Of a stretch of 64,000 nucleotides of DNA, positions 18,905 to 24,553 are shown one piece after another. The number at the start of each line of letters is the position of its first letter. Positions within the stretch are counted from its first letter, which is position 1. Below the pieces are notes generated by a model, which worked only from the letters and a program-made list of their open reading frames with translations, searched no databases and had not been told where the DNA came from. The stretch covers positions 160,001-224,000 of the forward strand of contig CAVSJV010000004.1 in assembly GCA_963728405.1 (NCBI GenBank), read 5' to 3'. Made by a program: the position numbers and the translations under genes. The DNA comes from Methanomassiliicoccaceae archaeon. Its GTDB lineage: Archaea; Thermoplasmatota; Thermoplasmata; Methanomassiliicoccales; Methanomassiliicoccaceae.

Positions 18905-20188
18905 ATGAGGCGGACCCTCGAGGAAATCAATGGTCGGATCGCCCAAGGCGAGGCGGTCGTTCTGACCGCAGCAGAGATAGAGGTATTGTTGTCCGAGGGC
19001 CGGGAACGAGAAGTGAATGAAGTGGACGTGGTGACCACTGGCACCATGGGACTTATGAGCGGCACCTATGCCGTCATATCATTCCCCCTCTCCCCGCCAG
19101 GAGAGCATCGACGATTTGTACACGCCTCGATCAACGGAATACCTCTGGTGATCGGCCCATGCCCGAACGAGGGGCTGGGGGTGATCGACGCAATGGTGTT
19201 CGGCACCGCCAAGAGCACCACCTGTCCAGCCTATGGGGCTGGCCATCTGTTCCGGGAGTTGTTGGAGGGGAGGCCAACCGATGTCGAGGCCATCTCGGAA
19301 CATGGTGTCACAGTACGCTCCACCATCCGCTTGGACGATATGCCAACGGCCAAATTGATGAGCACTAGGAACCTGTTCCGCAACTACCGGGCCATGGTCA
19401 ATCCGTCAGATATGGCGATGCCATCGATCTTCCATAGCCGGCCCTTCCCTCCCCGATTCGCCGGTCTGACCTTTTCAGGCTGTGGCCACATAAGCCCCCT
19501 TCAGAATGACCCCCAGCTTCGGACGGTAGGGATCGGCACGAAGGTCCTGTTCAATGGCGGAGAAGGCTATGTCATCGGGGCGGGCACGAGAAGCTCGCCC
19601 TCTGACCCGAACCTGATGACCATCGCTGACATGAAGAGCATGGACCCCTATTTGACCGGCGGGTTCATGACCGGCGCGGGGCCGGAATGCATCTGCTCCT
19701 ATGCCGTCCCCATCCCCGTGCTGGACAGCTCCCTCCTGGCGAGCGTCCAGACCAGGGACCGAGATATCCCCCTTCCTGTGGTGGACGTGAGAGACCGCAC
19801 CATGATCACCATGGCCGATTATGGCCAGGTCTGGTCAGGAAGGAGTACAGAGGTAGAGACCAGAACGATCGACTGCCTGGGTTGTGATCCCTGTTCTGCA
19901 GCTGTCGCCTGCCCAGCAGGGGCGATCTCCCCGACCCCGGATGGACCGCGTATCGACAGGATAAGATGTTTCAACTGCGGCACCTGCTCGACCTCCTGTC
20001 AAGGCGCATGCTTCTCCGCAGATTTGGGTCGAGTCATGATCGAGGTGCGCGGAAAGAGATTCGATGTGCCAGTGGTTTGCCGGCAATCGAACCGTAAGGC
20101 CGCGATCAGGACTGCCGAGGACCTTAAACGCCGGGTGCTCGACGGCAGCTTTGTCATCACCGGGAAGGTTGCCGACATTCGGCCATGA
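18905..20188 (+). CDS. Methanogenesis marker 16 metalloprotein (DUF39 + ferredoxin; proposed CoM synthase ComF)
   Basis: VDVVTTGTMGLMSGT, GPCPNE, QNDP..IGIGTKVLFNG, two CxxCxxCxxxC clusters, VVCRQS; adjacent to comDE. Confidence 0.85.
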   Translation: MRRTLEEINGRIAQGEAVVLTAAEIEVLLSEGREREVNEVDVVTTGTMGLMSGTYAVISFPLSPPGEHRRFVHASINGIPLVIGPCPNEGLGVIDAMVFGTAKSTTCPAYGAGHLFRELLEGRPTDVEAISEHGVTVRSTIRLDDMPTAKLMSTRNLFRNYRAMVNPSDMAMPSIFHSRPFPPRFAGLTFSGCGHISPLQNDPQLRTVGIGTKVLFNGGEGYVIGAGTRSSPSDPNLMTIADMKSMDPYLTGGFMTGAGPECICSYAVPIPVLDSSLLASVQTRDRDIPLPVVDVRDRTMITMADYGQVWSGRSTEVETRTIDCLGCDPCSAAVACPAGAISPTPDGPRIDRIRCFNCGTCSTSCQGACFSADLGRVMIEVRGKRFDVPVVCRQSNRKAAIRTAEDLKRRVLDGSFVITGKVADIRP

Positions 20189-20714
20189 ACCGGTCGATAA
20201 TCTGCCGCGGGGCCATATCTATTATCGGACCATCGATCGATTCGGGCGAGACCTTCACCACCAGTACGCCGGAGCTGACCGACCTTAACGCGCCCCTGAA
20301 CCCCTCCCGATCGCTGGCCGTGCCCACCTCACATATGCCGGCCCCCCTCGCTATTGAGGCCAGATCGGCATGGCGGGAGGTGCAGGTGGGCTGACCGCCG
20401 GTCGAGCCATAGACCCCATTGTCGATGATTACCAGGACATAATTGGCCGGGCACTGATCGGCGATCGTGGCAAAAGTGCCCAGATTCATAAGGACCGCCC
20501 CATCACCGTCGATGGCCAGGACCCGCCGGTCCGGCCGGGCGAGAGCCAGGCCGAGGCCGATCGAGGACGCCATGCCCATCGAGCCGAGCATGTAGAACTG
20601 GTTTGGCGAGTCCCTGATGGCATGCAGCTCCCTGGACGGGTCGCCGATGTTGCAGATGATGAGCGAATCGCCGCTCTCCTGGGCGATGATCTCCAGAGCG
20701 TCGGCCCTGCGCAT
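20157..20714 (-). CDS. comE: Sulfopyruvate decarboxylase beta subunit
   Basis: NIGDPSREL, FYMLGSMGMASSIGLG, TPP motif GDGAVLMNLG..DNG.YGSTGGQ. Confidence 0.92.
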   Translation of the reverse strand: MRRADALEIIAQESGDSLIICNIGDPSRELHAIRDSPNQFYMLGSMGMASSIGLGLALARPDRRVLAIDGDGAVLMNLGTFATIADQCPANYVLVIIDNGVYGSTGGQPTCTSRHADLASIARGAGICEVGTASDREGFRGALRSVSSGVLVVKVSPESIDGPIIDMAPRQIIDRFMAECRQPSR

Positions 20715-20715
20715 C

Positions 20716-21860: not shown

Positions 21861-22559
21861 TCATTCCCCCGTGTAGAACACGGAACCCTCGATGTGCCGG
21901 AGGACGCCGCGATGATGTCTCCGGGCCACCCGGGTCTCCCCACCGCACAAGGTGCACACCGCAAGTGGGGGCGTGTGTCGCAGGTGCATGTCCTCATTGA
22001 CCTCAATAGATGATGAGATAACGTTGGCCAGTTCTGCTGAACCTTTGCCAGTGAGCCCATTGGCCTCGATCAACGCACAGGATGGGTTCACCTCGAGGAC
22101 TCGTTCCCTGAACACCTCCCTTTCAGCCTGAGAGACCATATCGCCCTTGGTGACCACGACGACATCCGCCGTCGTGATCATCGGCCCGATCTTCAGCGGC
22201 GTATTAGGTCCGGTGGTGACATCTATCACGCAAGTGGCCAAACAACGGTCGGGATAGGGAGCGCATCGAAGGCATAACCCGGCGGTCTCTACCAGGAGCA
22301 GATCCGAATCAACGGACCGAGCCCAATCCATCATCCCCTCTGTGTTGTAGATGGCGAAGTGGTCGGGACACATGTCCCGAGCGAGGGCGATCTTGACCGG
22401 TACTCCCAGTTTGTCCAGCCTTCTCTCATCGTCCGTCCAAAGGCAATCGACCTTGACCAGGGCCGGCCGTTGCCCCTTCTCCTTTAATATGCTGGCCACT
22501 GCGCTCAGGACCGAGGTCTTTCCTGAACCGGGTGTCCCAGCAAAGATCACCATCCTCAT
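21861..22559 (-). CDS. CobW/HypB/UreG-like (G3E) GTPase
   Basis: [30 protein letters not shown]-terminal CTLC. Confidence 0.88.
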
Positions 22560-23315
22560 GCTGGGTTCACCACACCGCCATCACGGATCGTTTCTCGTAA
22601 GGAGAGCAGCCAATCATCGATAGTGGCCAATCGTGAACAGACCTCTGCCTCCTCGGCAGTTCGCCTGACCACGCGGCGCATGCCTCCTCCGGCCATTATC
22701 ACCCGCCGTGTAGCCAGTAGCGCCAGGAGGGGGTCGTGGGTCACGACCACTACGATCTTGCCACTGCCGGCAAGCAGCCCGAGCGCCTCCCTCTTACGGA
22801 TACCCGCATTCTCGATCTCATCGATCAATACGATGGGGGAATCGGAGATAATGGCAATGTCCGCGGCCATGAGCGCCCTGGACTGCCCTCCGCTTAGGGC
22901 GGTGAGATGACAGCCCATGGCGACCTCCTCGCCGGTCAGCATGTTTGCTGCCTCCACGACCTTAGGTACGAGGGATGCATCCTTTCCCCTGCTCTTCGCA
23001 TGCATGATCAGGAACTCCTGGACGTTCATGTCGGCAAGGAAGTGCATGTTCTGAGACAGCTGGGCCACTGGCTTGTTCCGTGGATCGAAGCGGACAGTCC
23101 AAGCTCTGGAGCTGGCCGTTAAGCATGATCCTGCGGCGAGTGGGCGTATCGCCTATGCTCATCTGCTCGATGTCGCTGATGAGGGTGGTCTTGCCAGAGC
23201 CGGTCGGACCGACTATGCTCACGACCTCCCCCGATCGCAGGATCAATCGGTCCACTTCTTCCTTTTCGCCCTTCCGATCAACGCCACCCTGTACGATCAG
23301 CTCCATACTCGTCAT
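22556..23315 (-). CDS. Soluble ABC-type ATPase (frameshift near 23100)
   Basis: [34 protein letters not shown]; no permease gene nearby. Confidence 0.85.
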
Positions 23316-24553
23316 GCTATCACCAAAAGTTCGCGAATCTGTCCTAATAGCTCCTCTGATCCTTGGTCCGGAGCTATCACCAGGTCTTTCTTGACCTGGT
23401 TGATGATGTGCTCTTCCCCTAACCGGGCCATTCCGCCTCCGGTGATGTTTAGGACACAGCGGTCCAGGGCTCCCACACGACCATCGTCAACAGCCTTGAG
23501 CAGAGCGGCCACCGCCACCGCTGGAGCAGGAAGAATGTCGATGTCTTCCGAACCCTCGAACAACTTTTTGGCCTCCTCGGCCTCCCCATTGGTCACGCCC
23601 ACTACCTCCCCACTGGTCGCATCAAGGGCCTCACCCACCCCCCCTTGCACACCATAGGGGGGCCGGCGGTTGAACAGCACATCGTCGTAGACCCCCTTGG
23701 GACAGCTTATGGGATAGTTACCTCCGACCCTGGCGTGATAGAGGGGGGCACAGGGGATGCTCTGGGCCAGGTGAAGGATCGGCAGGACCGTACCGAAACG
23801 ACCGTCGGCCAATAGGCGGATGGAGGCCTCATAGGCACTAATTCCCCCCGTACCGCTTCCCACGGCCTGGAAATAATGTCTCGGGAGGGCACCCTGGGCC
23901 AGGGTTGCATCGAGCATGACCGTCCCCATGCCGTCCCGACGGGCGACGTTCCTCGCTCCGCCCTCAGGAACAAAGCCTGGATGACCTGCAAGCGCATCGG
24001 CGACCCGGATCGCATCGTAGTAATCGCCCTCGACGGCGATGACCAGCACACCTTTGCGCTCGATGTCGGGGATCCAGATACGGTCCTGGGAACTTGTCGG
24101 AATGACGATGACGGCCTTAGCCCCTACAAGGGAGGAGACGTAGGCGAATGCTCTGCCAGTGTTCCCGGCCGAGGCCACTACGATCGCCTCCTTGCTCCCC
24201 CTTTCCCTCATCCTCCGCATCGTGGGCAGGGCCTCGAGCTCCTTGAAGCTACAGGTCAGCATATCTGCCCGTCGCTCCGGCCAGTAACCATTGAATGTGA
24301 TATACAGCTCCTTGAGCCCGATCTCCCTGGACAAGCCTTCGCTCTTGTAGGTCATGGGTCCGCTGCTGACCTCCTGCAGAGCGCCGGTCACAGGAAGCCA
24401 ATCGAGGAATCGCCAAATCCCCGGAAGGGGCTGAAGTACCAATCTTCTCTCTGAGTATTCGGTCCGGAGCAGGGAATCATCCTGGGAGCAAGCCAGAGCG
24501 TAAGGGTCTTGGAGATGACCGCACTTGGAGCAAATGACACGATATTCACCCAT
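23312..24553 (-). CDS. Cysteate synthase (threonine synthase family)
   Basis: GYWPE...TCSFKELEA, ASAGNT, EGGARNVARRDGMGTV, QAVGSGTG, LNITGGG. Confidence 0.9.
   Translation of the reverse strand: MGEYRVICSKCGHLQDPYALACSQDDSLLRTEYSERRLVLQPLPGIWRFLDWLPVTGALQEVSSGPMTYKSEGLSREIGLKELYITFNGYWPERRADMLTCSFKELEALPTMRRMRERGSKEAIVVASAGNTGRAFAYVSSLVGAKAVIVIPTSSQDRIWIPDIERKGVLVIAVEGDYYDAIRVADALAGHPGFVPEGGARNVARRDGMGTVMLDATLAQGALPRHYFQAVGSGTGGISAYEASIRLLADGRFGTVLPILHLAQSIPCAPLYHARVGGNYPISCPKGVYDDVLFNRRPPYGVQGGVGEALDATSGEVVGVTNGEAEEAKKLFEGSEDIDILPAPAVAVAALLKAVDDGRVGALDRCVLNITGGGMARLGEEHIINQVKKDLVIAPDQGSEELLGQIRELLVIA

Follow-up and report, generated by a model that had tools for sequence, protein, structure and literature searches.

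The 64,000-nucleotide (nt) window analyzed here, from a Methanomassiliicoccaceae archaeon, carries among its genes for coenzyme M (CoM) synthesis a soluble ABC-type ATPase, a G3E-family GTPase, and a COG2000-type Fe-S protein, and these three form one conserved module. Across the genomes surveyed the trio follows cysteate synthase (CS) more closely than it follows methanogenesis marker protein 16 (MMP16), the enzyme that forms the CoM thiol, and the constant theme of its genomic contexts is inorganic sulfur rather than MMP16 as such. Our tentative proposal, based on sequence, is that the module handles inorganic sulfur, with the Fe-S protein as the working part, and may serve the CS branch of CoM synthesis, most likely via sulfite. 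CoM is indispensable for methane formation and for the anaerobic oxidation of methane and alkanes.

An ATPase, a Ni2+-binding GTPase, and a COG2000 Fe-S protein are described as "often colocalized with CoM biosynthesis", with no role assigned, in the Fig. 2B legend of Chadwick, Williams, Shalvarjian, and Nayak (2025, PLoS Genet, PMC12068725). The window's trio is a further member of this published set and is functionally uncharacterized: the three gene types and the CoM setting are the same, and here the trio lies between CS and ComDE, with MMP16 convergent. Relative to the accessible text of that paper, the counts against CS and MMP16, the two subfamilies and their gene orders, the NifS/MoeB/SufBC context, the conserved residues, and a frameshift, all described below, are additions. 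A full-text literature search for COG2000 returned no other relevant paper, no functional study of the trio was found in the literature on marker 16, sulfoacetaldehyde, and sulfite in methanogens, and the accessible portion of Johnson et al. (2021, PMC8351635) makes no mention of it.

The trio is embedded in one coupled operon on the minus strand, in which CS (23312..24553) is followed by the ABC ATPase (22556..23315), the GTPase (21861..22559), the Fe-S protein (21234..21857; 207 amino acids), ComD (20716..21234), and ComE (20157..20714). The tight coupling proposed in the first-pass annotation of this DNA was borne out at every junction: the CS and ABC genes, and likewise the ABC and GTPase genes, overlap in an ATGA; a 3-nt gap precedes the Fe-S gene, which starts with TTG; the Fe-S and ComD genes overlap in a TGATG, the real ComD start being the ATG at 21234; and a 1-nt gap separates ComD from ComE. 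The convergent overlap with the marker-16 gene was also confirmed, the 3′ ends of ComE (20157) and of MMP16 (20188, plus strand) overlapping by 32 nt. All seven genes were found, and family scans match their assigned names. The coupled operon contains no permease gene and no other further gene, and no gene was seen between the CS/ABC, GTPase, and Fe-S genes of the 80 related loci described next, as judged with no membrane-helix prediction run.

One genome per species was scanned with an alignment of the Fe-S protein as query, which identified 325 relatives. The best 80 of the loci were retained, and their open reading frames (ORFs) were searched with the window proteins. The GTPase gene adjoins the Fe-S gene in 79 of the 80 loci and the ABC gene is present in 77, the misses being contig ends, and CS lies within 3 kb of the trio in 71. 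Five of the nine loci lacking CS at that distance are truncated; the other four are misbinned or of the type of ANME-2 (anaerobic methanotrophic archaea), with CS, if present, downstream. The nearest loci by name are Methanomassiliicoccaceae, with an Fe-S protein 83% identical to that of the window. In 52 loci 3 kb or more of sequence is available downstream; 19 of these have ComDE no further than 1.5 kb away, and 21 have MMP16 inside 10 kb, which leaves 31 with no MMP16 over that distance. Because most of these 52 loci have no ComDE or MMP16 near, the usual form in Methanotrichaceae is a four-gene unit of CS and the trio, with MMP16 not nearby; where one contig holds both, the unit and MMP16 are 0.3 to 2 Mb apart. 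Two archaeal-type trio loci (numbered L031 and L039 in our set) are found in metagenome-assembled genomes labeled bacterial, WOR-3 and Anaerolineales, respectively, through either mis-binning or transfer; the genome with L039 (G005) has no MMP16 over the cut-off.

Two subfamilies of the Fe-S protein were distinguished among 69 Halobacteriota genomes: 23 carry the window type (E about 1e-92 to 1e-100), and 46 a second, only distantly related type (E 1e-17 to 1e-32), whose named cluster members are Methanoregula and Methanophagales. The labels "Methanosarcina-like", "Methanomicrobiales-type", and "ANME-1-like" used for these genomes are provisional, their basis including gene order and the cluster members Methanoregula and Methanophagales. 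In the first subfamily the Fe-S gene lies 1.5 kb from CS in all 23 genomes. The second keeps the same trio order in 20 of 20 loci uncut by a contig end (L088-L100, L108, L109, L111-L119), its commonest arrangement being ABC-GTPase-FeS-MMP16-CS-ComDE on one strand (L088-L092, L094). In three genomes without MMP16 anywhere (L096-L098) the order is ABC-GTPase-FeS-CS-ComDE, and in three ANME-1-like loci (L118-L120), one of them from a genome that uses ComA, the trio stands beside MMP16 without CS. In 30 of the 48 second-subfamily copies, MMP16 follows on the same strand, 51-80 nt after the end of the Fe-S gene. The arrangement of the trio is far from chance.

The first-pass annotation had called for phylogenetic profiling of the trio against the CoM genes, and a census was taken of 422 genomes, 301 of Halobacteriota and 121 of the window's order, the class I methanogens (Methanococcales, Methanobacteriales) being outside the sample. 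Halobacteriota hold CS in 140 genomes, MMP16 in 140, and the trio in 69, of which 67 also hold CS and 60 MMP16; in the window's order the trio is found in 34 genomes, CS in 36, and MMP16 in 41, with the trio accompanied by CS in 33 and by MMP16 in 32. Thus 33 of the 36 CS genomes of the order have the trio, and none of its six genomes with MMP16 and without CS. When the two samples were pooled, CS was present in 100 and MMP16 in 92 of the 103 trio genomes. The supposed link to CoM synthesis held. A specificity for MMP16 did not: the trio occurs in 9 of 19 genomes with CS and no MMP16, as against 1 of 24 with MMP16 and no CS, and it is absent from 89 of the 181 MMP16 genomes. Of the 10 other genomes in the window's own genus, four have CS, the trio, and MMP16 together and six have none of them, five of these six being 97-99% complete; the whole CoM operon seems to have been gained or lost as a block, and CoM auxotrophs are therefore predicted within the genus.

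The Fe-S protein begins with a [4Fe-4S] domain (PF04060, 44.6 bits; cut-off 23) of the type found in the large subunit (CdhE/AcsC) of the corrinoid iron-sulfur protein (CFeSP) and in RnfB, with C12, C15, C20, and C36 invariant. Its structure was modeled with a pLDDT (predicted local distance difference test) of 79 as a helical N-domain joined to a β-rich C-domain. The N-domain matches CFeSP (4djd_C; 42% identity over 52 amino acids) and RnfB (9eri_B), with which it shares the PF04060 domain and its four conserved cysteines, but beyond the first ~57 residues the protein is unrelated to either. For the C-domain, Foldseek returned nothing from the PDB at E ≤ 0.001; a wide VIA-align search gave a best Z of 4.2, which came from the N-domain, and no convincing structural match to the C-domain; and the ESM Atlas held no usable match. 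Nor was the C-domain found fused into longer proteins at E ≤ 0.001, which is weak evidence. The family is small: at 50% identity it makes up ~25 full-length clusters in a set of 1.8 billion representatives. Across 104 sequences from both subfamilies the C-domain residues C111, H115, C179, H185, R86, R107, R198, and E200 are invariant, C85 and C151 are conserved solely in the window's subfamily, and some stand-alone copies bear His/Asp-rich C-terminal tails. Since two cysteines, two histidines, and three arginines are invariant, the pattern suggests a mononuclear or Rieske-like metal centre beside an oxyanion pocket. No trio protein has a Pfam match to the siroheme sulfite/nitrite reductase domains PF01077 and PF03460.

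The Cys-rich GTPase had been taken for a G3E metallochaperone-type protein, with which its match to PF02492 agrees (47.1 bits; cut-off 20.7). It scores 55.4 against the HypB model TIGR00073 (cut-off 121.2) and 32.9 against the UreG model TIGR00101 (cut-off 204.2); because both scores are under the equivalog cut-offs, its sequence places it in a separate G3E subfamily, HypB/UreG-like and neither HypB nor UreG proper. The closest solved chains are UreG (E 2.4e-8) and HypB. The P-loop (GTPGSGKT), C64-P-D-H67, C96, C99, C202, and C205 are invariant in 104 sequences, and C64-P-D-H67 aligns with the nickel-binding CPH at the dimer interface of UreG, metal binding here being a prediction. Like UreG with urease and HypB with hydrogenase, this protein of the same PF02492 fold, with P-loop and CPxH, adjoins a putative metalloprotein client; unlike them, it has extra invariant Cys pairs and is partnered with an ABC ATPase and with a novel Fe-S protein.

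The description of the ABC protein as permease-less stood, in that Walker A, Q-loop, LSGGQ, Walker B, and H-loop motifs of a single-domain ATPase (Pfam ABC_tran) can all be read and the cluster has no permease gene. One correction is that in this assembly the reading runs across two frames owing to a shift of one base. Intact ABC relatives score 49-57 bits in Pfam (PF00005). In one of them (L008; 252 amino acids) generic ABC domains are the sole matches, and the SufC model is absent from the NCBIfam matches at E ≤ 1e-10, weaker matches being unexamined. SufC of the SufBCD system is, like the trio ATPase, soluble, permease-less, and paired with a protein that handles sulfur or metal, and SufBC genes occur near several trio copies; the trio ATPase differs in lacking that model match at this threshold and in having a partner that is not SufB/D-like and whose predicted fold matches nothing solved.

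The frameshift splits the ABC gene into 23315-22962 and a second frame that continues down to 22556. It results from one surplus base relative to all four close relatives, in a variable linker and outside any homopolymer, and in 78 of the 80 related loci the ABC match is a single ORF, cut by a contig end, or missing, a split being found only in L010. A 151-base contig of depth 2 from a public soil-metagenome run (X1), which is possibly the window's own source, is identical over 23001-23152 except for one base fewer at 23096. Because the four relatives and this contig are without the extra base, the frameshift is probably an assembly error, or else a rare variant, and the gene is probably intact in nature. 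Among public sequencing runs, one DNA run held a fraction of 0.10 of the window's words; no RNA run sharing them was listed.

Away from the CoM genes, the trio keeps company with sulfur genes. Seventeen fetched copies do not adjoin CS (L093, L095, L099, L100, L108-L120), and in ten of them (L100, L108, L109, L111-L117) genes for a NifS-type desulfurase, an SsuA-like protein, and a MoeB/ThiF/UbaA-type adenylyltransferase are followed by ABC-GTPase-FeS, often with SufB-SufC convergent to them; in three of these ten (L100, L109, L111) a second NifS gene is inserted between the GTPase and Fe-S genes. The copy in L095 (4445-5140 and neighbors) faces genes for SsuA-like, ThiF, DUF5591 (ArcS-like), CysK-like, and CysE-like proteins. 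The neighbors of the stand-alone copies L093 and L099, PKD and TPR proteins, are uninformative. SsuA-like neighbors were found in 16 of 113 loci, and CS is present elsewhere in every genome with a copy in the NifS/SsuA/MoeB context.

From the gene content, coupling, conservation, distribution, and conserved residues of the trio we infer a set of biochemical roles. The Fe-S protein would be a functional metalloprotein in which the [4Fe-4S] domain serves as electron entry to the novel domain joined to it; the GTPase would load its second metal centre; a dimer of the soluble ABC ATPase may drive an ATP-powered conformational or electron-gating step, as SufC does in SufBCD; and NifS, where inserted in the module, could supply the sulfur. 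The Fe-S protein is put at the centre of this scheme because its partner types act elsewhere as maturation or energizing factors, and because of its own invariant C-domain residues, the His-rich tails of some copies, and the alignment of the GTPase CPDH with the CPH of UreG. The module would thereby act on inorganic sulfur for sulfur-consuming biosynthesis and, in the CoM operon, would make sulfite or hand it over to CS, a pyridoxal phosphate (PLP) enzyme that converts O-phosphoserine and sulfite to cysteate. Because about 43% of CS genomes manage without it, the trio would be an accessory, and not the private helper of MMP16. With two NTPases, junctions of 1-4 nt in the operon, and a presence in several methanogen orders, it is an obvious candidate for the supply of sulfite to the sulfonate in sulfide-grown cells, or for the delivery of sulfur or electrons to the thiol-forming enzyme. 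If the module does work on inorganic sulfur by means of a novel metal centre, this would be new enzymology and might offer a target for methane mitigation; a mere maturation aid would still account for genes so far without an assignment in a central pathway of methanogens.

Several observations weigh against the sulfite proposal. The CS genomes without the trio number 76 of 176 and include Methanosarcina-like genomes of 3-4 Mb with CS-ComDE-MMP16 (L101, L102), and CS therefore does not need the trio. Neither CS nor MMP16 accompanies the trio in two genomes of methanogen orders, G361 and G259, the latter with two McrA genes. Three of the four ComA-bearing genomes tested are without it, and it is therefore not a general sulfite supplier. 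No complementary distribution was found with the ATP sulfurylase Sat (PF01747; 7 of 69 trio genomes and 16 of 73 CS genomes without the trio) or with the siroheme sulfite-reductase family (PF01077), which is present in 63 of the 69 trio genomes, and no Cys motif of CS sets the trio loci apart from the others. The second-subfamily copies just upstream of MMP16 and the three ANME-1-like pairings of trio and MMP16 without CS count on the same side, and the NifS/MoeB surroundings suggest reduced sulfur rather than sulfite. The putative Cys2His2 site is predicted from conservation alone. Adjacency counts inside one clade are non-independent events, and the counts therefore describe the sample and amount to no statistical test. 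The predicted complex of CS (residues 15-403), MMP16 (22-421), and the Fe-S protein scored 0.01 against a mark of 0.32, which speaks neither way.

The first-pass annotation had assigned the trio to the last CoM step, as a dedicated maturation, sulfur-delivery, or electron-delivery machine. On that reading the [4Fe-4S] domain would feed the ferredoxin domain of MMP16, or the module would hand over the thiol sulfur. The annotation's picture of a tightly coupled, uncharacterized unit within the CoM genes holds; the dedication to MMP16 is supported only in part, because the trio follows CS more than MMP16 and occurs in NifS/MoeB/SufBC contexts, and we consider this assignment unlikely. A link to MMP16 may nonetheless exist, given the 30 of 48 second-subfamily copies that end just before it, and the loci L118-L120, the presence of MMP16 in 92 of the 103 trio genomes, and the good fit of a reduced-sulfur donor to the NifS/MoeB context agree with one, whereas a private helper of MMP16 would have to be squared with the 9 of 19 against 1 of 24 genomes, with 89 of 181 MMP16 genomes that do without the trio, with the megabase-scale separation in Methanotrichaceae, and with G259 and G361. 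The accessible text of Chadwick et al. (2025, PMC12068725) calls the mechanism of MMP16 and its sulfur donor open and dependent on sulfide level, and also cites MA1715 (COG2122) of Methanosarcina as a sulfur-trafficking protein for L-ASST. As far as that text goes, MA1715 is, like the trio, an accessory; it is proposed to pass sulfur on to an enzyme of COG1900 and is dispensable at high sulfide. The trio differs in having two NTPases and in being absent from the Methanosarcina-like genomes sampled, and no sequence relation between the two was seen, none having been tested.

More doubtful still is a metallocluster or Fe-S assembly kit, in which a SufC-like ATPase, a GTPase that inserts metal, a scaffold or carrier protein, and in some cases NifS would build or repair the clusters of client proteins without supplying a sulfur substrate. 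ABC ATPases, G3E GTPases, and NifS-type proteins are maturation or energizing factors for partners elsewhere, so that there are precedents for all three partner types. The SufBC and NifS-type genes that neighbor ten of the 17 non-CoM copies, three of which have NifS within the module itself, and the two [4Fe-4S] motifs of MMP16 would suit such a kit; it is harder to reconcile with an ABC protein that matches generic ABC domains only and no SufC model at E ≤ 1e-10, and with the retention of SufBC in these same genomes. Nor does it sit easily with CS as the most constant neighbor: this PLP enzyme is not known to contain a cluster, and its Cys pattern did not differ between 15 sequences from loci with the trio, among them that of the window, and seven from trio-less loci. 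A narrower form of the sulfite proposal is less probable again, namely that the module is an anaerobic sulfite source in which sulfide or NifS-derived persulfide would be oxidized on the new metal centre of the COG2000 protein. Lacking a high-potential acceptor, such cells would use ATP and GTP to drive the electrons uphill, by way of the [4Fe-4S] domain, onto carriers of low potential, and the product would pass directly to CS or ComA, so that free sulfite would never meet methyl-CoM reductase. Least probable of all, in our estimate, is that the trio has no role in CoM synthesis and is inherited along with the CoM operon, acting as a regulator or as an accessory in sulfur starvation or sulfonate scavenging. 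Its patchiness even in the window's genus (4 of 10 other genomes), the SsuA-like neighbors, and the two genomes with the trio and neither CS nor MMP16 could be read in that way; in that genus, however, the trio, CS, and MMP16 are present or absent together, and passive co-inheritance sits poorly with 1-4 nt junctions inside the operon and two independent gene orders.

The remaining genes of the locus were assigned with family models. CS matches TIGR03844 with 543.3 bits (cut-off 324.9), and its relatives begin MG.Y, in agreement with a start at the ATG at 24553. ComD and ComE, the alpha and beta subunits of sulfopyruvate decarboxylase, match TIGR03845 with 200.8 bits (cut-off 147.95) and TIGR03846 with 224.1 bits (cut-off 221.5), respectively. 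MMP16/ComF, the CoM synthase (18905..20188, plus strand), consists of a COG1900 domain and a 2x[4Fe-4S] ferredoxin domain and matches TIGR03287 with 469.8 bits (cut-off 363.95) and PF01837 with 318 bits; C89, C196, and eight ferredoxin-domain cysteines are invariant in 24 sequences. Its ORF opens with a TTG at 18896 and its likely start is the ATG at 18905, so that the ends given for the cluster in the first-pass annotation, 18905 and 24553, agree with the likely starts of MMP16 and CS. A TATA-like box at 24588..24595 on the minus strand, 35-42 nt upstream of the CS start, is a candidate operon promoter. An aminotransferase candidate had been named outside the cluster, and the gene at 53995-55197 (minus strand) is indeed a class I/II aminotransferase of the aspartate-aminotransferase family (286 bits; equivalog cut-off 624), a candidate for the conversion of cysteate to sulfopyruvate. 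Cysteate synthase is reportedly the subject of work by Graham et al. in 2009, and the activity of MMP16 of work by White in 2019. The CS route has been inferred for Methanomassiliicoccales (Borrel et al. 2014, PMC4153887, in its accessible part), and MMP16, put forward as the final-step enzyme in the first-pass annotation, has now been shown genetically to be the primary CoM synthase of Methanosarcina acetivorans, according to the accessible text of Chadwick et al. (2025, PMC12068725).

On the minus strand, immediately upstream of the CoM operon (24774-29262), are LeuB-, LeuD-, LeuC-, and LeuA-type genes of the isopropylmalate and homocitrate-homoaconitase family, which may serve leucine or coenzyme B (2-oxosuberate) synthesis, the family models fitting both alike. 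Methanogens with CS and ComDE and no MMP16 at E ≤ 1e-70 were also encountered (G069, G199, G264, and ~15 genomes with an ATP-sulfurylase ORF of 557-592 amino acids); L-ASST as their thiol-forming CoM enzyme is a guess. The window's genome has a second MMP16 copy on another contig (G000:C17:177226-178425), which at 474 bits lies over the TIGR03287 cut-off, and two MMP16 copies are likewise present in its relatives G342, G374, G388, G415, G419, and G421.

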